Of a stretch of 64,000 nt of DNA, positions 6,301 to 43,263 are shown in pieces (the first letter of the stretch is position 1; each line of letters opens with the position of its first letter). Under the pieces are notes generated by a model. That model saw only the letters and a list, made by a program, of their open reading frames with translations. It was not told the DNA's origin and did not search any database. The translations under genes and the position numbers were made by a program. The stretch spans positions 37,448 to 101,447 of IMG/VR virus record IMGVR_UViG_3300045988_023742; one strand, given 5' to 3'. This DNA is from a virus.

Positions 6301-7214
6301 TGAGCTTCAGAGGTAATACCTCTAAGTAACTCCATAAGAGCTTGATGTACCTTAGTAGGGTCTAATGTCTGTACAAATCCAAGGTCATCTCTTTTAGGCT
6401 GAGCTTTTTGCATTACTCTACCATCAGCAGCAGTTACATCTACTATCTCCATAACAGGAAGACTGCTAATAAGTCTTCTTACCTGATGTCCTACAGAACC
6501 AAATGAAGATTCAAGACCATTAGATGTTTGCCAAGCTTCTCTAACAGATTCATTTGGGTCAATAAGTTGAGAGAGGTCATTATCTCCATAATTAAGTTCA
6601 TCTGTCTCATCAACAAACTCCATCTTATTACCCAATTTAATTCCCTCAGTATCTCTGAGTTTCATTCTAGCAAATGCTGTTAAAGCTGACCAATTAGAGA
6701 GAACCTGATTGAACTTTGAAGCTTTCTCCATGTCACCTTTAGCTCTGAACATAGACTGCATCTGCATTATCTGATTATAGACCTTTTCAAACAGATTAAA
6801 CTCTCCAACCTTTGTATCAATAATAGCTCTTCTACTAAGCTGTGGATTATTCTTCTGAATTTCATCTACAACAGCAGAAAACATAGCAGCAATCATATTT
6901 ACTCTATTAAAGCGTTCTTCTGCTGTAAATACTTTTCTCAATCTTTTATAGCTTGGAGCTAAATTAGTACCAATACTATTAATTTTAGCTTGATTTCCAA
7001 TCTTAATCTCCTGTCTGAATTTAGCAAGAGTTAATGCAGCTTCATCAAGGTTAGTTGTGTCTAGAGGATTATTTTGATTAACTTCATCATACATACCTCT
7101 AAGTGTAGCAACTCTAAAGGGGTTAAACTTATCACTAGCATTACCTCTCCATCCTAATTTAGTTGCTAATACATCATCTATTCCCTTTTGTGGGATATAA
7201 CAAAAATTTGCCAT
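333..7214 (-). CDS. giant virion-type RNA polymerase (crAss-like gp66-type), 2293 aa
   Basis: AGFDFDVDKLY contains a DxDxD metal-binding motif (nt 2997-3011), as in double-psi beta-barrel RNAPs. Size and context are typical of crAss-like phages. Confidence 0.7.
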   Translation of the reverse strand: MANFCYIPQKGIDDVLATKLGWRGNASDKFNPFRVATLRGMYDEVNQNNPLDTTNLDEAALTLAKFRQEIKIGNQAKINSIGTNLAPSYKRLRKVFTAEERFNRVNMIAAMFSAVVDEIQKNNPQLSRRAIIDTKVGEFNLFEKVYNQIMQMQSMFRAKGDMEKASKFNQVLSNWSALTAFARMKLRDTEGIKLGNKMEFVDETDELNYGDNDLSQLIDPNESVREAWQTSNGLESSFGSVGHQVRRLISSLPVMEIVDVTAADGRVMQKAQPKRDDLGFVQTLDPTKVHQALMELLRGITSEAQMMGAFRNPRTGQAKSVWMIPILDALTKNPQLRTQFFRDFKKNFQPYSILVEDKEASKKGLRKYKTKLLNRVEDLLGGSFMSRIILGKPLNEKTSVFDTKGNVNVSNLKNTLSQINEWLAQPKENTGSIFDKQKQYGGGKQSKFYSRGGSSIERREFLRTSLESLGVEVDADTLDEIMNHSKDLRKLTNALQELAQYGVSENQLKKLEAGEKIPYKSLVRAKGQNSRKEGVFEEKIRKIHEMITKNREGLRLESRVRHKDSKGNNITLFSQVNPSFMGDKFDKIQSYVKANDKAGLRSFLANEYLDSPFFSYNGKVLNKWLEELLKCCDTPTNVSLEDTFAAQFDYLRFLGTSDMSFENFTSKQHMIDMLTEFRSDKELSNKADTALYPVFILGDSGVSKYIRAKRYSNEEIMDGLYNAYEQERRRQELVKATNEWLDSRNYSKVENFSDSEDTFSILGFLNKDYKASDGTVGKYSSMLSDRPTETEVKKAISAYLSDALIDFKKQLTNLGLLETVKVKEIDRNNKQVEVERYTYLGEDVTSENLDEKLAEFYNNVKFATINQLQLMTIDTSFYKGTKDLQKRYKEIHAPGSLLSLSAIDSNGKKFSEDGIERCVYFDDININAEQSNPEFMEAIAAVHGKDSDVYDAYKKNTLTDGQGYRTLRSYRKVMGMAGQWTEEMQKVYEAIEQLKVDYNGKSIPSEKLAEIASMAVVFQPIKPYMFTHEKLALNDKDKVIIPVQHKYAEAVLIPELLPKGSKLRDMAYWMDDNNVDLVGSTKIVKVGGFGSTDISKASDAKSLGEALSKAYVHQLSYGDYRIQTNVPEHINSSQLFGTQVRKLIMANINMDDYHYMNYIGGDGTVNLGGNHGRVKLNGRNLVSFYNGLIVANILESFDSFKDGISDANKLSEKLIQGVINNSRESMDNVLAYAVDNGKFAMPLFEGGLEHDAAAMAFSMFKKIVNKQQIKGGSAVQVSAMGIKGYEEDGDLKYVTDGKGNILYAECEIPFDISYKDSEGNEVHLDFNEYCNPDGTLKMIESEGKKISLLEHRFPGSTSLLAYRIPTERDYSMLNLRVKRFSQKTAGGTIKVPAQGTTIAGFDFDVDKLYFMRREYKALKKQSTDEATDALLSAVFSDDTSKLIDFEEYDFNKSPLENTRAARNNMLINLIQQRLMDPETMKQRTTPGGFANASKSARIMRELLYGSTEGIIDDNKKVNWEALNNRAKDKSNDPEPNYDPSDPMTIITYNQQNQVAGKLIGIFANQNTNHAFASLMKSFKISKPIEFAGHSYGDGRFSDFLHAPNGVDVDLNVAEFLSASVDAVKDPVLNFMNLNTLTADAGAVLARIGYTTTEIGMLFNQPIIKEVCEYSFNNSVGIDTAIREVREKYKNQGASVRSRKEPLNPEHFSMDKLAKNILNDRVLREKGSNVMDNNTFATEQLEVLDLFNDISAVANDVSKFVTSTKFTASNAVGSTFGDLYAQQLKVQKYLSEVGTDASHVEMEVTDKLDSPIMDDNSLTTMSNSDYLDTMMGNPFAYEQAMFDANRKSLEILSKYFPYNKMAYVNARNTLNGLVNYGSLDADTINSIHSDMMVYLLSNQERSEFNGSLPKQTQHGLMTTREYYTKWFAKDLLNHLEANPQMKSIPIFAYMIPEVKEVKNPATGESTDEISINIQGIGGLAPYMKDEIRESWADLARNPETSQIATDLFLYNFYKLGFNFSPKAFMNLAPTEVKENIKVPTADGDRSYVDFMNDIMEDKFNINAETFARQYMLNHLDNKRFGLDAKSKTVLDILKPLAIQAGVARNEFTLDLSKIDKENGKYFILKENKMAKSRQFVPMIKINTGQGQVVYMADSFDETKTSVMTYHKVDKLGTKGQSLQYFGDNISSDIVEDTEVSETFEEGSTSESSEERESTVESFNREAVINEIAEEMSKAYEKAGIRDDQGELYTANVLKAALSNTEEADLKASVEELRQACRVDGVVVLDENGNPMKAC

Positions 7215-7237
7215 ATAGTATAATTAAAATTTTAGTG

Positions 7238-7269
7238 CAAAGTTAATTAAATTTGCTCAGTTTACCAAA
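7238..7269 (-). promoter_or_regulatory. Bacteroidota-type promoter for the giant RNAP gene
   Basis: Minus strand reads TTTG (7269-7266), 20 nt, TAACTTTG (7245-7238). Confidence 0.6.
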
Positions 7270-9402: not shown

Positions 9403-9705
9403 TCATTCCTCCAAATTTACTTCAAAATCATCTTCAACCCAATCATTAAACTCTCCTACACTATTAGGGAGAGTTACTTGGTCCCTAACTGCTTGCTTTA
9501 AGTCACACTCAGAATAATCATAGCTAATACCATGATAACCATCTTCATCAGAGTATTCTTCAGCAATATAGTCAGTAACCTCTACCTCTACTGTCTTACT
9601 TAGTGTTATAGATACAGTGACCTCAATCTTTCTTGGTTCAGGGTCTACTTGGTTCCAAGGAGCATCTGAGGTATCTGAGCCAATAGGATAATCATAATTA
9701 TTCAT
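9403..9705 (-). CDS. highly acidic hypothetical protein (possible HicA partner)
   Basis: 100 aa, rich in D and E. Its start overlaps the stop of the HicA-like ORF (ATGA). Confidence 0.45.
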   Translation of the reverse strand: MNNYDYPIGSDTSDAPWNQVDPEPRKIEVTVSITLSKTVEVEVTDYIAEEYSDEDGYHGISYDYSECDLKQAVRDQVTLPNSVGEFNDWVEDDFEVNLEE

Positions 9706-9905
9706 TTTCTTCGCCTTTTAATGTTTACATCTAAGTTATTTTCTTTAATAAGTCTATGAGCTATAACACTTTCTAGTTTATGAGGGATAGAGATATGTCT
9801 TCCCTTATCATTAACATATATAGCATGGTCACCACTATGTCTACTATAAGAGAATCCATTCTTCTCTACTACCCTTATAAACTCTAATTGTGTGTATTGC
9901 TTCAT
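9702..9905 (-). CDS. hicA: HicA-like mRNA interferase (RNase toxin fold)
   Basis: 67 aa. ...KNGFSYSRHSGDHAIYVNDKGRHISIPHK...I.HRLIKE matches the HicA pattern G(F/W)...GSHh.....vP.H. Confidence 0.55.
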   Translation of the reverse strand: MKQYTQLEFIRVVEKNGFSYSRHSGDHAIYVNDKGRHISIPHKLESVIAHRLIKENNLDVNIKRRRK

Positions 9906-10630
9906 TTATACTTAGGATTATCAGGCTGTTCAGGATTTGTATTATCCCCATACACAGCCTTAAATTTTTCAAAATCACAGTACTTTATCTTGGTAATAAC
10001 CCTCTCTCCGTTTCTAAACCTAAGACCACAGGTAGTTCTAAGAACTAAGCCCTCTGCATTAAGGTCTTTATCTTCAGAAATCTTAGACTTAAAGCCTTTC
10101 TTAACAAACTCTACAGCCTGTGGAATAGTCATATAGCCAATAAGAGGAACCATAGGTACATTACATTTCTTAGCAATATCTTCACAGTCTTCTCTTTTAA
10201 GCCACCAGTCATTAATCTTGACATCAAAAAGAATGAAATCTACATCCTTGCTTATATACTTTCCACCACACTTTTGAATGCCTGCACCATAGCCTTCACC
10301 ATATATACATACAGTATCTTCAGGTGTCAATACAGGAAATACTTTAGCCCAGTCTACCTTGAAGAAAATACTTTCAAGCTTCTTAACAAGCTTACTAGGA
10401 AGCTCTGCTCTATTAGTTCGACCCTTGATAGTCACACCATAAATCCAAGGTTCTTTACCTTCTCCTGCTACCATAGTTACATAGATTCTGATGTTAGTGC
10501 CATCAATCTTCTCTGTACATTCCCAAAGGCAATCCTTTAAATAACTGAACTCTTCACAAGTATACTGTGAGGGAATAATAACATTCTTACCATCCCTCTT
10601 GAATAATGTATTAATTTTCTGATATTCCAT
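9902..10630 (-). CDS. ATP-dependent RNA ligase (Rnl2-like nucleotidyltransferase)
   Basis: Motif I EKIDGTN, motif III IYGEGYG, motif IV AEGLVLR, motif V ITKIKY. At 242 aa it is too small for a typical DNA ligase. Confidence 0.65.
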   Translation of the reverse strand: MEYQKINTLFKRDGKNVIIPSQYTCEEFSYLKDCLWECTEKIDGTNIRIYVTMVAGEGKEPWIYGVTIKGRTNRAELPSKLVKKLESIFFKVDWAKVFPVLTPEDTVCIYGEGYGAGIQKCGGKYISKDVDFILFDVKINDWWLKREDCEDIAKKCNVPMVPLIGYMTIPQAVEFVKKGFKSKISEDKDLNAEGLVLRTTCGLRFRNGERVITKIKYCDFEKFKAVYGDNTNPEQPDNPKYK

Positions 10631-32171: not shown

Positions 32172-32513
32172 TTAGTTGTAAATGTCATTGTCTGCACCCT
32201 TCTTCACCTTCTCCTTAAGGATTTCCTTTATAACTTCAAGGAACTTTGCCTTAGATATTGACTTTGCAGTATCCATAAGTGCCATAAACTCTTTTGGAGG
32301 CATAGCAATCATTACAGAGATGATAACAGTCGATACAAGAAGAGCACTCTTTCCAGAGAAGCCTTTAGTGAGGTTTACTACATCCTCAATCTTAACATTC
32401 TCTTCTTCGTACTGTTTCTTGTTCTCTTTATAAGCTGACTTAAATGCTTCAAGTACCTTCTTGATGTCTTCTTCATTGATGATAGACATCTGGTTTTTTT
32501 TGTTTGTTGCCAT
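32172..32513 (-). CDS. hypothetical protein
   Basis: 113-aa ORF directly downstream of the tRNA-like array. Confidence 0.45.
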   Translation of the reverse strand: MATNKKNQMSIINEEDIKKVLEAFKSAYKENKKQYEEENVKIEDVVNLTKGFSGKSALLVSTVIISVMIAMPPKEFMALMDTAKSISKAKFLEVIKEILKEKVKKGADNDIYN

Positions 32514-32563: not shown

Positions 32564-32675
32564 AGCTACTTAATTGATACATTTGAAGTGTATTGCATTA
32601 ACCACTATGCTAATTATCCATTCAGAAGAATAATATAGGACTTGAACCTATGAAATAATAGTATTGTAAGTAGCT
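32564..32675 (-). ncRNA. circularly permuted tRNA-like element with UCA anticodon, closed by module M7 helix
   Basis: Order on the minus strand: T-arm ATAGG-TTCAAGT-CCTAT, acceptor 3' ATTATTC, 8-nt linker, acceptor 5' GGATAAT, D-arm GCAT/ATGC, anticodon arm ATACA-CTTCAAA-TGTAT. Confidence 0.6.
32659..32671 (-). repeat. box M7 ACTTACAATACTA; helix 32667-32675 with 32564-32572
   Basis: AGCTACTTA is the reverse complement of TAAGTAGCT. Encloses the permuted tRNA-like element. Confidence 0.75.
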
Positions 32676-32679
32676 GAAG

Positions 32680-32805
32680 TAAGGCAGAGAAGAATCGAAC
32701 TTCTGTTACAGGTACTAAATTTTTATTAATATAAATTAGTATTGTAAGTATCATTAGATACTAATATTATTATAACCTGTGTCCTGACCACTAGACGACT
32801 GCCTT
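32680..32805 (-). ncRNA. tRNA-like gene (Glu-type scaffold) whose anticodon stem closes a 61-nt region carrying module M6
   Basis: AAGGCAG-TC-GTCT-AGTGGTCA-GGAC-A-CAGGT [61 nt] ACCTG-TAAC-AGAAG-TTCGATT-CTTCT-CTGCCTT-A. Confidence 0.6.
32737..32749 (-). repeat. box M6 ACTTACAATACTA; local hairpin 32757-32762 with 32747-32752
   Basis: AGTATC-TAAT-GATACT lies immediately 5' of the box. Confidence 0.7.
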
Positions 32806-32825
32806 ATGAAATTGGCACTATTCTT

Positions 32826-32899
32826 TATGCACTGATGGGATTGAACCATCTCTGATTGTACCAAAAAACAATTGTCCTAACCAATTAGACTAAACGCAA
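32826..32899 (-). tRNA. tRNA-Gln(UUG)-like with 8-nt anticodon loop, enclosed by module M5
   Basis: Stem ATTGT/ACAAT closes the loop TTTTTGGT (8 nt). D and T arms are canonical. Confidence 0.45.
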
Positions 32900-32903
32900 A
32901 ATT

Positions 32904-32916
32904 TACTATTGTAAGT
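32904..32916 (-). repeat. box M5 ACTTACAATAGTA; helix 32914-32921 with 32812-32819
   Basis: TTGGCACT is the reverse complement of AGTGCCAA. Encloses the Gln-like tRNA. Confidence 0.75.
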
Positions 32917-32925
32917 GCCAAAAAG

Positions 32926-33036
32926 TGGGGAAGGTAGGACTCGAACCTACATAGTGATAGTTTATGAAACCTATTGCTTATTGATTTAGTATTGTAAGTA
33001 TCTAAGATACTATTAAACCATTTTAGCTACTTCCCC
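32926..33036 (-). ncRNA. tRNA-like gene interrupted after the D-arm by module M4
   Basis: 5' part GGGGAAG-TA-GCTA-AAATGGTTTAA-TAGT. 3' part GTAGG-TTCGAGT-CCTAC-CTTCCCC-A. Acceptor is perfect; no clean 5-bp/7-nt anticodon arm. Confidence 0.5.
32987..32999 (-). repeat. box M4 ACTTACAATACTA; local hairpin 33005-33011 with 32997-33003
   Basis: AGTATCT-T-AGATACT lies immediately 5' of the box. Confidence 0.7.
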
Positions 33037-33053
33037 TTGTATAGTCACTATTT

Positions 33054-33126
33054 ATATACATGTTAGAATCGAACTAACTACACTTGAATTACAAATTCAA
33101 TGCTCTACCAAATGAGCTAATGCTAT
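33054..33126 (-). tRNA. tRNA-Thr(UGU)-like with weak acceptor stem, enclosed by module M3
   Basis: Perfect D, anticodon (TTGAA-TTTGTAA-TTCAA) and T arms. Acceptor ATAGCAT/ATGTATA pairs at only 4 of 7 positions. Confidence 0.45.
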
Positions 33127-33139
33127 TAGTATTGTAAGT
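33127..33139 (-). repeat. box M3 ACTTACAATACTA; helix 33137-33143 with 33043-33049
   Basis: AGTCACT is the reverse complement of AGTGACT. Encloses the Thr-like tRNA. Confidence 0.75.
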
Positions 33140-33165
33140 GACTGAATATCTGTAGACACTAAATT

Positions 33166-33239
33166 ATCACATTGTTGGAATCGAACCAACTACTATCTGC
33201 TTAAAAGGCTGATGCTCTAACCAAATGAGCTAAATGTTA
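33166..33239 (-). tRNA. tRNA-Lys(UUU), enclosed by box-helix module M2
   Basis: D-arm GCTC/GAGC, anticodon loop CTTTTAA, T-arm GTTGG-TTCGATT-CCAAC. Mismatches A29:A41 and A2:G71. Confidence 0.65.
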
Positions 33240-33242
33240 TAA

Positions 33243-33255
33243 TAATATTGTAAGT
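33243..33255 (-). repeat. box M2 ACTTACAATATTA; helix 33253-33260 with 33153-33160
   Basis: TAGACACT is the reverse complement of AGTGTCTA. Encloses tRNA-Lys. Confidence 0.75.
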
Positions 33256-33265
33256 GTCTAATGGT

Positions 33266-33296
33266 GAATGTAGGAGGTCTCTCTCCTCCTACATTC
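33266..33296 (-). other. perfect 12-bp GC-rich hairpin between units M1 and M2
   Basis: GAATGTAGGAGG-AGAGAGA-CCTCCTACATTC. No U-tract on either strand. Confidence 0.6.
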
Positions 33297-33299
33297 TAT

Positions 33300-33369
33300 T
33301 GATACTTGTTGTTGAACATTAATACGCTATTCTAATCTATGAAATACAGTTATAATGTTGTAAGTATCA
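33300..33369 (-). ncRNA. structured non-tRNA unit enclosed by module M1
   Basis: Outer helix TGATACTT/AAGTATCA and inner helix AACATTA/TAATGTT. No T-loop or D-loop signatures. Confidence 0.3.
33353..33365 (-). repeat. box M1 ACTTACAACATTA; helix 33362-33369 with 33300-33307
   Basis: TGATACTT is the reverse complement of AAGTATCA. Confidence 0.7.
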
Positions 33370-33377
33370 TTAGGTCC

Positions 33378-35201
33378 TTAAAGGACATTTTCTCTCACTA
33401 TGTCATATCTATTACTCCTGAACAATGACTGTAAAGGAGTATAAACATCCATAATATCCATATCTTTGAAGTTAGTTAAGAACTGCTCAATCTGTGCTAC
33501 ATTAGCAGGGATATAAATCATGTTCTCAATACCTTCAAATCTGTTGATAGAAGCACTTCTGAAGCCCCAATCACCATCTACATCAATAGCTACAATATAT
33601 GGCTTAAATCCAAAGTATCTTTGACACTTCATCATAAAGTCATTCATTGAAGCTTCAGGAGACCACAATGAGTTCCACTCACCATCACTGATGATAGTCC
33701 ATACAGGATAGTTCTTCAGAGCATCAAGTATCTGAGGGTTATTCTGACACTCCCTATGCAAATCATCAGGTATTTTACTTATGTTAGTACCACCACCTTG
33801 GAATACTGCATTACAGAAGTTCCTAATAGATTGATAGTTCTCACAGAAGCTCTTCTTAGGGTCAACAAAAGGAGTCTGCTTTACCTTTACTGTTTCACTT
33901 CTGATGAAAGAGTTTACAGAGTTATTCTTTCTGTCTATACAAGTATGCCAATGACTATTAGTATTGAAGAAACCAAGTAAGTTTCTACCATCATCATCTG
34001 GGTTCTTACATAAACATACAGAAGCTAAGAATGTAGCAAAGTTGAAAGGTTTACCTCTCATAGAACCTGAATCATCTATGATTACAAGACTATTATAAGG
34101 AAGATTGACCTTAGTCATGAAGGTTTCAAGCTTTAGCTCATCTACATTGTCATTACAGATGTCATTATATAGCTCTTTGAAATTAGTAGCTCCTGTATTG
34201 ACCTTAGCCTGCTTTGCAACTTTCTTCAACTTGATTTTATCCTCTTCTGTAGCTTGCCCCTGTCTAACTTTTTCCTCTAGAACTCTCTGTTCCTCTTGTT
34301 TAGACTCCTTGTACTTCTCCCATTCAGTGAGCCAAGGCTGGAACTTAGAATATTTATCCTTCTCAGTATCTTTAATCTTACTGTAAAGGATTCTATTCTT
34401 AACTCTAAACCTTGCCTGTGAAGGAAGCTTGTCAAACCAATCAATAAATGATTGTTTGTCAAACTCATTGATTTTACCTGTAGAGAATAGTACTGACTCA
34501 AGGTCACCATTGTAATCCTTTCTCCACTTCCTATAGTCCTTGAAGTTAGCATAGTTCTCATTTACTTCATACTCCCAACCCATAAGTTCTGAGAGCATTA
34601 TAAGCAACTTAACCTTATCTTCCATTACCTTTTTAGTCTCAGGAAGCATCTTGCTATGACCACTTCTTTTGCTTACTCTAGGAAGTGTCAAGAATTTAGC
34701 AACAAGAGTTTTATTGAAAGGATTATTACCATTGATAACCTTATAGAGATAGCTTGCAATAACCTCCCTATATTTTGCCTCAGCAAAGAGATTATGTATT
34801 CTAATAACTCTAGAGCCTTTAGTCTGTACTCTATTTCTGAACAGCAAATCAAAGCAAGTATATTCATTGAATAAACCTGCTTCAAGGAACTTCACAAATT
34901 GAGCTTGATGCTTATTCCACATCCAATCAAGAACTACTTGGAAACCTTCTCTATTGGCATTACCACCACTATCCTTCTTAACACCCTTAAAGATGTTATG
35001 CTGTCTAGCTGTAATATCACCAATTGAGAAAAGTAAACTAAAGAACATTTGCTTATGTTCTTTATTTCCTCGAACTTCTGACCAGCAAGCATCAAGTAAT
35101 GATGCATCAATTGTGTTGCCTACACTCTGAAAGAGTTTAAGGCAATTTCTTAATCCATAAAAAGGATTATCGTTACTTTTGTTTAACTTTACCTGTACCA
35201 T
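33378..35201 (-). CDS. vWA/MIDAS-domain protein with helical N-terminal domain (DUF2828- or TROVE/Ro60-like architecture)
   Basis: VIIDDSGSM (DxSxS MIDAS), later GGGTN and ISDGE. N-terminal roughly 370 aa carry the LLDACW...FFSLLFSIGD...DWMW...FDLLF pattern. Confidence 0.6.
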   Translation of the reverse strand: MVQVKLNKSNDNPFYGLRNCLKLFQSVGNTIDASLLDACWSEVRGNKEHKQMFFSLLFSIGDITARQHNIFKGVKKDSGGNANREGFQVVLDWMWNKHQAQFVKFLEAGLFNEYTCFDLLFRNRVQTKGSRVIRIHNLFAEAKYREVIASYLYKVINGNNPFNKTLVAKFLTLPRVSKRSGHSKMLPETKKVMEDKVKLLIMLSELMGWEYEVNENYANFKDYRKWRKDYNGDLESVLFSTGKINEFDKQSFIDWFDKLPSQARFRVKNRILYSKIKDTEKDKYSKFQPWLTEWEKYKESKQEEQRVLEEKVRQGQATEEDKIKLKKVAKQAKVNTGATNFKELYNDICNDNVDELKLETFMTKVNLPYNSLVIIDDSGSMRGKPFNFATFLASVCLCKNPDDDGRNLLGFFNTNSHWHTCIDRKNNSVNSFIRSETVKVKQTPFVDPKKSFCENYQSIRNFCNAVFQGGGTNISKIPDDLHRECQNNPQILDALKNYPVWTIISDGEWNSLWSPEASMNDFMMKCQRYFGFKPYIVAIDVDGDWGFRSASINRFEGIENMIYIPANVAQIEQFLTNFKDMDIMDVYTPLQSLFRSNRYDIVRENVL

Positions 35202-35219
35202 TCTGCTAATGTTTTATTT

Positions 35220-35232
35220 TATTTTTGTAAGT
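35220..35232 (-). promoter_or_regulatory. box M8 ACTTACAAAAATA in vWA-gene leader; helix 35230-35236 with 35171-35177 encloses the start codon
   Basis: CGTTACT is the reverse complement of AGTAACG (codons 8-10). The ATG at 35201 lies inside the enclosed 47 nt. Confidence 0.5.
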
Positions 35233-35288
35233 AACGTAGTTAGGATATTCTTTTCTATCTTTGAACTATATATGTCTTCCTTATACTA

Positions 35289-37368: not shown

Positions 37369-37499
37369 AGTTGGGGCTTTTTATTCTTCAAGTGTGTGCC
37401 CTCTTCTATTCCTTCTTCACACTTATGGCTATAGAAGTAACTAGCTAGCTTAGTACTTTAGATTCACCATACTCTTTACACTTTGCAACCCTCAAAGTG

Positions 37500-40641: not shown

Positions 40642-40691
40642 AAAAGTTACTGAAAAATTTGGTAGTTTCAAATATTATTTGTACCTTTGCA
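40642..40691 (+). promoter_or_regulatory. Bacteroidota-type promoter cassette, copy 1 (tRNA array)
   Basis: TTTG 40658-40661, 20 nt, TACCTTTG 40682-40689. About 41 of 50 nt identical to 42890-42939 by my count. Confidence 0.65.
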
Positions 40692-41509: not shown

Positions 41510-41544
41510 TTCCTTTGATGTAGAGTTGATAATATAATATATTT

Positions 41545-41618
41545 GGGTCCTTAGCTCAATAGGTTAGAGCAATTGACTGTTAATCAATAGGTTGTGGGTT
41601 CAAGTCCCACAGGTCCCG
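41545..41618 (+). tRNA. tRNA-Asn(GUU)
   Basis: Anticodon arm ATTGA-CTGTTAA-TCAAT, T-arm GTGGG-TTCAAGT-CCCAC. Confidence 0.8.
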
Positions 41619-42889: not shown

Positions 42890-42939
42890 AAAAGTTGCTA
42901 AAAAGTTTGGTAGTTTCAAATAAATTGCTTACCTTTGCA
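42890..42939 (+). promoter_or_regulatory. Bacteroidota-type promoter cassette, copy 2 (tRNA-Thr/Met)
   Basis: TTTG 42906-42909, 20 nt, TACCTTTG 42930-42937. Confidence 0.65.
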
Positions 42940-43101: not shown

Positions 43102-43117
43102 TTATTGTAGGCTATAT

Positions 43118-43191
43118 ACAGGGATGTTAGCAGTGGTAGCTAGTTAGCCTCATAAGCTAAAGGTCGTGGGTTCGACTCCCACTCCCTGAAG
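43118..43191 (+). tRNA. tRNA-Met/Ile2(CAU)
   Basis: Anticodon arm TTAGC-CTCATAA-GCTAA, T-arm GTGGG-TTCGACT-CCCAC. Position 1:72 is an A:A mismatch. Confidence 0.7.
43174..43190 (+). repeat. 17-bp direct repeat copy 1 (3' end of tRNA-Met)
   Basis: GACTCCCACTCCCTGAA, identical to 43386-43402. Confidence 0.9.
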
Positions 43192-43263
43192 ACTTACATA
43201 GAAAGAACCTCCACGTGGTGTAAGTTGGGTAATGCTAATCTTTCTAGTTTAATTCTCAAAAGA

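Follow-up and report, generated by a model that had tools for sequence, protein, structure and literature searches.

Does the short sequence that recurs through an array of transfer RNA (tRNA) and tRNA-like genes of a crAss-like phage act on DNA, as a promoter or a recombination site would, or inside the RNAs that carry it? The question is raised by a stretch of 64,000 nucleotides (nt) from the IMG/VR virus record IMGVR_UViG_3300045988_023742 (positions 37,448 to 101,447 of that record; hereafter the window), where a 13-mer, ACTTACAAYAYTA (the box), is present in seven minus-strand copies, of which six are exact and one has a single mismatch. The array that holds them is bounded on that strand by the gene for a 607-aa protein and by the next gene, whose ATG lies at 32513. 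We find that the box and a stem formed by its flanks are one portable RNA module, and, from the analyses described below, we give about an even chance to the proposal that this module is an RNA-level handle for a Ro60-like protein, i.e., a crAss-type Y RNA system.

All seven copies lie where a sequence-only reading of the window had placed them, and among 100 dinucleotide-preserving shuffles, which gave 1.34 matches on average, none reached seven. The 8-mer core of the box, ACTTACAA, occurs eight times in the 64 kb, every time on the minus strand and between 32.6 and 35.2 kb; the eighth copy, expected by the same reading at 35.2 kb, was found at 35232, 19 nt upstream of the ATG of the 607-aa gene (35201). 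In all eight copies the preceding three to five bases together with ACT(TA) have an exact reverse complement nearby. These arms are 6-9 nt long, the partner arm is led by AGT, and it lies 50-94 nt downstream in six units and 1-4 nt upstream in the other two. The seven arm pairs reported earlier are all present, and the eighth copy adds a pair not listed before, CGTTACTT/AAGTAACG. A single match of this kind is not rare, since over all ACT sites in the window the probability is 0.18 for an arm of at least 7 nt and 0.066 for at least 8 nt; because 18% of these sites reach 7 nt, the claim for the arms rests on the ensemble and on relatives.

Using the 607-aa protein as query, we collected 26 related loci from IMG/VR (49-98% identity; single loci are cited by L number), which contain 177 ACTTACAA sites, almost all on the gene strand. 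An arm of at least 7 nt is present at 151 of the 177 sites, with its partner 34-116 nt downstream or a few nt upstream. In a swap test on the 156 unique sites, in which flanks were exchanged only between units with different arms, a complement of at least 7 nt to the unit's own flank was found in 84%, versus 11.5% after exchange. A MAFFT alignment of 18 flanked-tRNA units, built blind to arms and structure, brings the arms into register and reveals a stem of 7 base pairs (bp), AGxyACU/AGUy'x'CU, in which five pairs are nearly invariant and the two central ones covary (AU 9, UA 7 and CG 2 at one position; CG 9 and UA 8 at the other). None of 500 shuffles gave as high a covariation score for the central pairs, and the signal collapses when the registers are slid. 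Compensatory changes are also visible between orthologous units, namely GGCA/TGCC to GGTA/TACC (unit 5, in L007, L009, and L010), CGTT/AACG to TGTT/AACA (unit 8), and AGTC to AGTT. The covariation check in related genomes that the sequence-only reading had proposed thus came out in its favour, as did its claim that the arms differ between copies yet stay complementary, with the correction that the variation amounts to about two base pairs in a largely fixed stem. Chance recurrence of AT-rich 7-mers, considered as an explanation of the arms, was ruled out by the shuffle, swap, and covariation tests.

Sequence conservation is limited to positions -3 to +12 around the box, with none upstream to -40, and the 5' strand of the stem runs into a conserved single-stranded tail, UACAAUAYUA. 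In minimum free energy (MFE) folds, the arm helix is the closing stem of every one of the eight window units. The six far-arm units of the window use six different central dinucleotides, and the central AT of unit 1 recurs only in the local hairpins of units 4 and 6.

The cargo held by the module varies (Table 1). In units 2, 3, and 5 the box lies in the 5' leader and the arms flank complete tRNAs. The MFE fold of unit 2 has z = -3.8. The tRNA of unit 3 (anticodon UGU, weak acceptor stem) scores 51 bits with the Rfam tRNA model and was missed by ARAGORN, and that of unit 5 has an 8-nt anticodon loop, for which ARAGORN gives a four-base anticodon, tttg; in relatives this loop has 7 nt with TTG or TGG. 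Adjacent arms lie inside the tRNA-like genes of units 4 and 6, as had been noticed from the sequence. In unit 4 (acceptor GGGGAAG/CUUCCCC) the D loop holds the inserted module, and the anticodon loop, UUUCAUAA, is 8 nt long with CAU; in unit 6 about 52 nt are inserted in the anticodon loop, and its MFE fold is a cloverleaf with the module hairpin inside that loop (z = -3.3). Unit 7 is a circularly permuted tRNA, a gene order (3' half before 5' half) also present in relatives; its MFE fold is a five-way junction of closing stem, T arm, acceptor hairpin with an 8-nt loop, D arm, and anticodon arm, and the Rfam tRNA model matches its 5' half only. A helix around a tRNA or tRNA-like body, previously assigned to four units, therefore holds for units 2, 3, and 5, while the body in the fourth, unit 7, is the permuted tRNA. 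The cargo of unit 1 is not tRNA and measures 54 nt rather than the 52 nt given before; its MFE fold closes with the arms (z = -2.3). In unit 8 the stem encloses the 5' untranslated region, the ATG, and the first 10 codons of the 607-aa gene, and the module is also present upstream of the homologous gene in related loci. Permuted tRNAs are numerous among these loci, some encoding the discriminator base and CCA followed by a short linker, and in the interrupted tRNAs of relatives the commonest place of the module is the variable region, others being the D loop, a site after the D arm, and the anticodon region. Between units 1 and 2, at 33266-33296 on the minus strand, there is also a strong 12-bp GC-containing hairpin, GAATGTAGGAGG-AGAGAGA-CCTCCTACATTC, with no U run after it.

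Table 1. Positions in the window of the box copies, the module-bearing units, and the adjoining gene
Feature	Position	Strand	Details
13-mer box copies	33365-33353, 33255-33243, 33139-33127, 32999-32987, 32916-32904, 32749-32737, 32671-32659	minus	
607-aa gene	33378..35201	minus	open reading frame (ORF); helical N-terminal part and C-terminal vWA with DxSGS metal ion-dependent adhesion site (MIDAS) motif; candidate Ro60/TROVE-like partner
Unit 8, leader of 607-aa gene	35171..35236	minus	arm 1 35236-35229 (CGTTACTT), box core 35232-35225, arm 2 35178-35171 (AAGTAACG, codons 8-10)
Unit 1	33300..33369	minus	arm 1 33369-33362 (TGATACTT), box 33365-33353, arm 2 33307-33300 (AAGTATCA)
Unit 2	33153..33260	minus	arm 1 33260-33253 (TAGACACT), box 33255-33243, tRNA-Lys(UUU) 33240-33165, arm 2 33160-33153 (AGTGTCTA)
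Unit 3	33043..33143	minus	arm 1 33143-33137 (AGTCACT), box 33139-33127, tRNA 33126-33055, arm 2 33049-33043 (AGTGACT)
Unit 4	32926..33036	minus	arm 2 33011-33005 (AGTATCT), arm 1 33003-32997 (AGATACT), box 32999-32987
Unit 5	32812..32921	minus	arm 1 32921-32914 (TTGGCACT), box 32916-32904 (one mismatch), tRNA 32900-32825, arm 2 32819-32812 (AGTGCCAA)
Unit 6	32680..32806	minus	arm 2 32762-32757 (AGTATC), arm 1 32752-32747 (GATACT), box 32749-32737
Unit 7, circularly permuted tRNA	32564..32675	minus	arm 1 32675-32667 (AGCTACTTA), box 32671-32659, arm 2 32572-32564 (TAAGTAGCT)
Unit 7 interior		minus	T arm 32651-32635, closed acceptor hairpin 32634-32613, D arm 32610-32595, anticodon arm (UCA) 32593-32577

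The same arrangement is found in the cultured phage crAss001, whose gene order equals that of the window (helicase/nuclease, peptidoglycan hydrolase, SPFH protein, small ORFs, about 900 nt of non-coding sequence, and gp96). The product of gp96, syntenic with the 607-aa gene, matches Pfam TROVE (5.5e-13) as well as vWA_Ro60, and has been described as the product of an early gene that may be part of a ribonucleoprotein (PMC8375218). Within the non-coding gap there are four same-strand copies of a related box, TTACTTCAA; a variable arm precedes each, and two of the four lie inside tRNA-like genes carrying insertions of at least 80 nt; no further same-strand copy exists in the 102.7-kb crAss001 genome. 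A search for exactly complementary arms gave a modest signal only, and it was folding together with comparison of variants that revealed stems containing G.U pairs. In 54 TROVE loci the gene strand has 142 copies of TTACTTCAA and the opposite strand two; for ACTTACAA in the DUF2828-like loci the counts are 169 and 8. The two variants are lineage-specific, and the variant tracks the protein family. The feature is conserved in at least two Crassvirales lineages, and the analyses show the module, its covariation, its topologies, its tRNA-like cargo, and its link to this gene in different lineages. In cr116_1 (L030), the nearest listed relative for the flanking genes, the syntenic 14 kb contain neither a gene of the 607-aa type nor a same-strand ACTTACAA, and a 58-nt intergenic gap (7211-7269) stands in place of the gene and the 0.8-kb array; from this sequence comparison, gene and array appear to be gained or lost as one block. 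No comparable repeated box was found in Cellulophaga phage phi14:2.

That the module works in RNA is indicated by several results. The acceptor stems of the interrupted genes, which vary in sequence (GGGGAAG/CUUCCCC, GGGAGAG/CUCUCCC, GGGGAUG/CAUCCCC, and others), pair across the inserted module, and therefore the functional RNAs must contain the box. In the gene leader, arm 2 falls in codons 9-10 (AGU AAC) in most loci, i.e., within the coding region; where these codons are changed (L013 and L014), a new AGUAAC follows some ten codons downstream. The box-adjacent stem of the crAss001 lineage has G.U pairs, and variants show changes from G.U to A-U and from U-A to A-U. Of the earlier proposal of an RNA-level protein-binding or processing module, the RNA level and the conserved structure are thus borne out by covariation and acceptor pairing; protein binding or processing is its more tentative part.

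These observations have to be weighed against another reading, in which the box is the promoter or initiation region of the virion RNA polymerase, the units and the 607-aa gene are separate early transcription units, and the inverted repeat is a DNA-level or secondary feature. Such promoters likewise combine a short, conserved, strand-specific AT-rich motif in the early region with an adjoining inverted repeat, and here a compact, strongly conserved AT-rich motif of about 12-16 nt heads each unit. The virion-polymerase promoters of phage N4 are DNA hairpins, and two window units have a hairpin immediately upstream of the box. The geometry is nevertheless not that of N4 (a stem of 5-7 bp with a loop of about 3 nt): arms are adjacent in only two of the eight units, with loops of 1 and 4 nt, and the long loops of the others (50-94 nt) are unlike N4 hairpins. 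In favour of a promoter, the array region is syntenic with the crAss001 early region (PMC8375218), the box resembles the promoters of Thermus phage P23-45, whose virion RNA polymerase uses short AT-rich promoters (bioRxiv 10.1101/2022.12.01.518664), and the crAss-type virion polymerase prefers a single-stranded template (bioRxiv 10.1101/2020.03.07.982082). It also fits that no host-type TTTG-N-TAnnTTTG promoter is present on the minus strand at 32-36 kb. The box itself is unlike the TTTG-N20-TAnnTTTG promoters, as had been noted from the sequence; these precede the canonical tRNA arrays on the plus strand, where perfect Bacteroides-type copies stand at 40658-40689, 41514-41545, and 42906-42937, and because of this placement the two tRNA sets are apparently expressed differently.

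What speaks against a promoter is, first, the position of the arms. Arm 1 precedes the box, its covarying partner usually lies 35-115 nt away, downstream of the cargo, and an RNA starting after the box would be without arm 1. The motif also lies inside RNAs whose halves pair across it; in L016 only one base separates the end of the box from the ATG; and the G.U pairs of the crAss001 stems would be A.C mismatches on the opposite strand. In crAss001 the box is confined to the non-coding gap and is not found before other early genes, and in phi14:2 the authors found no motif common to sequences upstream of early transcripts (bioRxiv 10.1101/2020.03.07.982082). Moreover, gp96 has a host-type promoter of its own: a perfect TTTG-N20-TATCTTTG precedes it (L027, 10289-10370, minus strand), which would be odd for an early gene if the virion polymerase transcribed all early genes. 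The case for a phage-polymerase promoter is weakened by these findings, and we regard it as unlikely.

A different RNA-level explanation is that the module is a cut-and-rejoin signal, at which an endoribonuclease of phage or host would cut and an RNA ligase would join the exons, so that interrupted tRNA genes would be spliced and permuted ones turned into circles that RNase P and RNase Z would then open. A bacterial virus would in this case have its own counterpart of archaeal tRNA splicing at bulge-helix-bulge (BHB) motifs. To our knowledge, disrupted and permuted tRNA genes have so far been found only in archaea and some algae, and there is a likeness to BHB-dependent processing, in that one structural motif occurs in all the topologies known from archaeal BHBs (leader-trailer pairings, the D, anticodon, and variable loops, and permuted tRNA ends) and pairing of the flanks joins two halves. 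Some permuted units, as mentioned, encode a discriminator base and CCA before a short linker, and canonical anticodon loops are kept while the triplet changes. In addition, the window contains an RNA ligase gene (9702-10630, minus strand; PF09414, E=6.5e-18; PHROG 548) that adjoins an ORF with a HicA toxin domain, a HicA-like RNase-domain protein, and crAss001 likewise has HicA and polynucleotide kinase/phosphatase genes.

The geometry, however, is not that of a BHB: the stem, of largely fixed sequence and joined to a single-stranded box, has mismatches and long single strands at its ends, where a BHB would have 3-nt bulges around a 4-bp helix, and the host here is a bacterium. Nor were consistent exon boundaries found. 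In three hand-parsed cases compatible with a restored canonical tRNA (units 4 and 7 and L012 7165) the 3' exon begins 17-18 nt past ACT, but this rule fails for unit 6 and L013 9470, and the 5' boundary varies by 0-12 nt; a junction scan of 51 interrupted or permuted units with ARAGORN, which is too permissive for this purpose, gave no sharp boundary. Cutting the module out of the gene leader would ruin the mRNA, whole-tRNA units and the 50-nt non-tRNA units need no splicing, most insertions fall in the variable region, where an extra arm can be tolerated unremoved, and no homologue of a splicing endonuclease was found in a non-exhaustive search. Taking both sides together, cutting and rejoining at the handle seems rather unlikely.

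Another known case of permuted tRNA-like genes is the transfer-messenger RNA (tmRNA), as two-piece tmRNAs arise from circularly permuted ssrA genes. Here too the tRNA-like domain is made of non-contiguous parts held by pairing, whereas our units have no mRNA-like tag region or Ala identity pair, and tmRNA does not carry the handle motif. A tmRNA-like stretch was observed in phi14:2 (L204, 4031-4502, plus strand; unannotated, between g004 and g006), scoring 46 bits with the Rfam tmRNA model against a gathering score of 47; intergenic regions in this part of phi14:2 are among the most transcribed early RNAs (Drobysheva et al., bioRxiv 10.1101/2020.03.07.982082).

The cargo changes fast among relatives. 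In genomes whose 607-aa proteins are 91-95% identical to that of the window, the anticodon of the unit-7 orthologue is TCA, GTT, TTT, GTC, or GAT, and in other genomes its arm is deleted; the unit-3 orthologue has TGT, GGT, TAT, or CAT. The stems are identical among very close relatives despite the changed triplets (for unit 7, orthologues in L002-L005), and in L002, L005, L007, and L010 the unit-5 tRNA has been swapped for 34-49 nt with the arms kept. Comparison of these sequences suggests that the anticodon of box-associated tRNAs is under diversifying pressure. Presence, absence, or replacement of units among close relatives, with arms and box kept, would also be expected if the module were a DNA recombination site of mobile tRNA cassettes, similar to integron attC sites or invertible segments, with the inverted arms as products or substrates of site-specific recombination. 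Permuted orders could then result from integration of a circle through an internal site, and the cargo is indeed enclosed by the arms. Arms that surround the cargo do not form a compact attC, though, and a site whose arms have just 7 bp, five of them fixed, would be very short for recombination; the neighbouring genes that we examined include no recombinase. The permuted and interrupted forms are shared by diverged genomes and give coherent RNA folds, and both the relocation of codons that keeps arm 2 in the coding region and the G.U pairs of the crAss001 stems fit RNA pairing better. We therefore consider a DNA cassette site very improbable.

A candidate for the partner of the module is the adjacent 607-aa protein. 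An AlphaFold2 model of it (predicted local distance difference test score 81.7) has about 360 helical residues followed by a vWA fold, and its best PDB match, also the only significant full-length one, is Ro/Rsr of Deinococcus radiodurans (2nvo, E=2.4e-5). In BFVD the model has full-length DUF7788/vWA matches with template modelling (TM) scores of 0.5-0.64, and a TROVE protein matches more weakly (E=1.2e-4). At the sequence level, the protein gives a weak match to PHROG 850, 'RNA-binding protein' (E=5.6e-4), and one homologue matches DUF2828 (E=1.2e-5); Pfam, a PDB profile search, tblastn against INPHARED, and Pfam searches of distant representatives yielded nothing beyond vWA, the one DUF2828 match, and weak 'RNA-binding protein' matches. 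A single distant query retrieved no more distant relatives, and the alignment was too divergent for a locus search. A scan of the collection for pairs of boxes 75-105 nt apart returned chiefly isolated matches due to chance, and nothing here is drawn from it. On the strength of the model, the protein may be regarded as a candidate Ro60-like partner of the module.

The comparison with Ro60 is suggested by the RNAs as well. YrlA RNAs are circularly permuted tRNA mimics encoded beside the Ro60 gene in bacteria and phages; Ro60 contacts mainly their 5' strand, and the 5' strand of the closing stem carries the contact motif (PMC4201824; bioRxiv 10.1101/312249). In Mycobacterium smegmatis, RNase P can open the closed acceptor stem of YrlA, and CCA is added (PMC4201824; bioRxiv 10.1101/312249). 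A phage-encoded Ro60 system is known from Thermus phage phiRo60 (PMC12135203), so phage-encoded examples exist. In our case, too, putative small RNAs are encoded beside a gene for a protein of predicted helical plus vWA architecture, and their folds are closed by a stem with a conserved motif on its 5' strand (ACUUACAA in the window, UUACUUCAA in the crAss001 lineage). The permuted cargo of unit 7 shows the YrlA order of terminal stem, T arm, closed acceptor hairpin, and D arm, and the RNA ligase of the window genome recalls rtcB in the Salmonella rsr-yrlA operon. The sequence-only reading knew of no similar phage tRNA-array element. This holds for the motif, since the literature searched contains no description of it, nor of permuted or interrupted tRNAs in crAss-like phages, but the Ro60/Rsr-Y RNA (YrlA) ribonucleoprotein is the closest of the known systems.

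If the module is a handle for a Ro60-like protein, the system could work as follows. Handle-bearing small RNAs would be transcribed on the strand of the Ro60/TROVE-like gene, probably together with it, and would comprise whole tRNAs, tRNA mimics with a loop-inserted handle, permuted tRNAs with a closed acceptor, and hairpin RNAs of about 50 nt. The Ro60-like protein would recognise the handle in the way that Y RNAs are bound by Ro60/Rsr, at the terminal stem and the 5'-strand motif, and binding would define and protect the ends of units cut from a long early transcript and assemble them into tRNA-like ribonucleoproteins, which may take part in RNA repair or quality control, or may replace tRNAs or act as decoys of them during infection. 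The two varying central pairs could act as an address by which each unit pairs with itself in a multi-unit transcript, and the copy around the protein's own start codon could provide translational feedback. What binds the handle, where its RNAs end, and which role they play are inferences drawn from the comparisons above.

Several results weigh against this interpretation. Pfam gave no match for the 607-aa protein, and none to TROVE for it or 12 homologues; the TM score of the model against 2nvo is only 0.30-0.35, and hhalign, comparing profiles, aligned it with the TROVE family of crAss001 over the MIDAS stretch of vWA only. The box is unrelated to the Ro-binding motifs GGUCCGA and GNCGAA, which it resembles in position and not in sequence. 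The Rfam Y_RNA and YrlA models gave no match to the array at E<=10 and none in the crAss001 gap, the sole YrlA match in the window (E=0.48) overlapping ordinary tRNAs, and units with complete canonical-order tRNAs match no described Y RNA. The agreement between box variant and protein family is not protein-specific, because the two lineages differ in every phage protein, virion RNA polymerase included. Autoregulation is not general, because the leader of crAss001 gp96 has no box. Finally, the window lineage shows no excess of G.U pairs at helix ends, where the counts of G.U versus A.C are uninformative as the helix stops abruptly at T.T, A.A, and C.A. Other differences concern organisation: the window protein lies outside Pfam TROVE and is DUF2828/DUF7788-like by fold, there are at least seven units per genome here and one or two there, the handle is also inserted in tRNA loops and placed on the leader of the protein's own mRNA, and the anticodons of the cargo are hypervariable. 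Because these differences are substantial, we place the module as working like a Ro-Y RNA system rather than as a demonstrated member of it.

One further observation concerns tRNA ends elsewhere in the window. A weak match to the HDV-F-prausnitzii model (43191-43247, plus strand; 23 bits versus a gathering score of 44, E=0.98) begins at the last base of a tRNA-Met (43117-43191), and could be an HDV-like ribozyme that cleaves the 3' trailer, or due to chance.

Crassvirales, whose early non-coding RNAs have hardly been characterised, are among the most abundant human gut viruses. A portable handle of the kind proposed would give a concrete, testable function to the TROVE/Ro60-like early protein of crAss001, and tests are feasible because crAss001 is cultured. 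It would also widen the Ro60-Y RNA paradigm to families of modular RNAs present in multiple copies, and it would account for the several tRNA-like genes of these genomes that escape tRNA scanners or are miscalled by them. A bolder version, in which crAss-like phages possess a protein-catalysed cut-and-ligate system for tRNAs at the stem and box, with the phage RNA ligase as the joining enzyme and the Ro60-like protein as a platform, appears doubtful to us; if true, it would mean that disrupted and permuted tRNA genes are matured in a bacterial virus too, a new tRNA gene organisation in the bacterial world. The hypervariable anticodons on a conserved scaffold hint at a conflict with host defences that target tRNAs.

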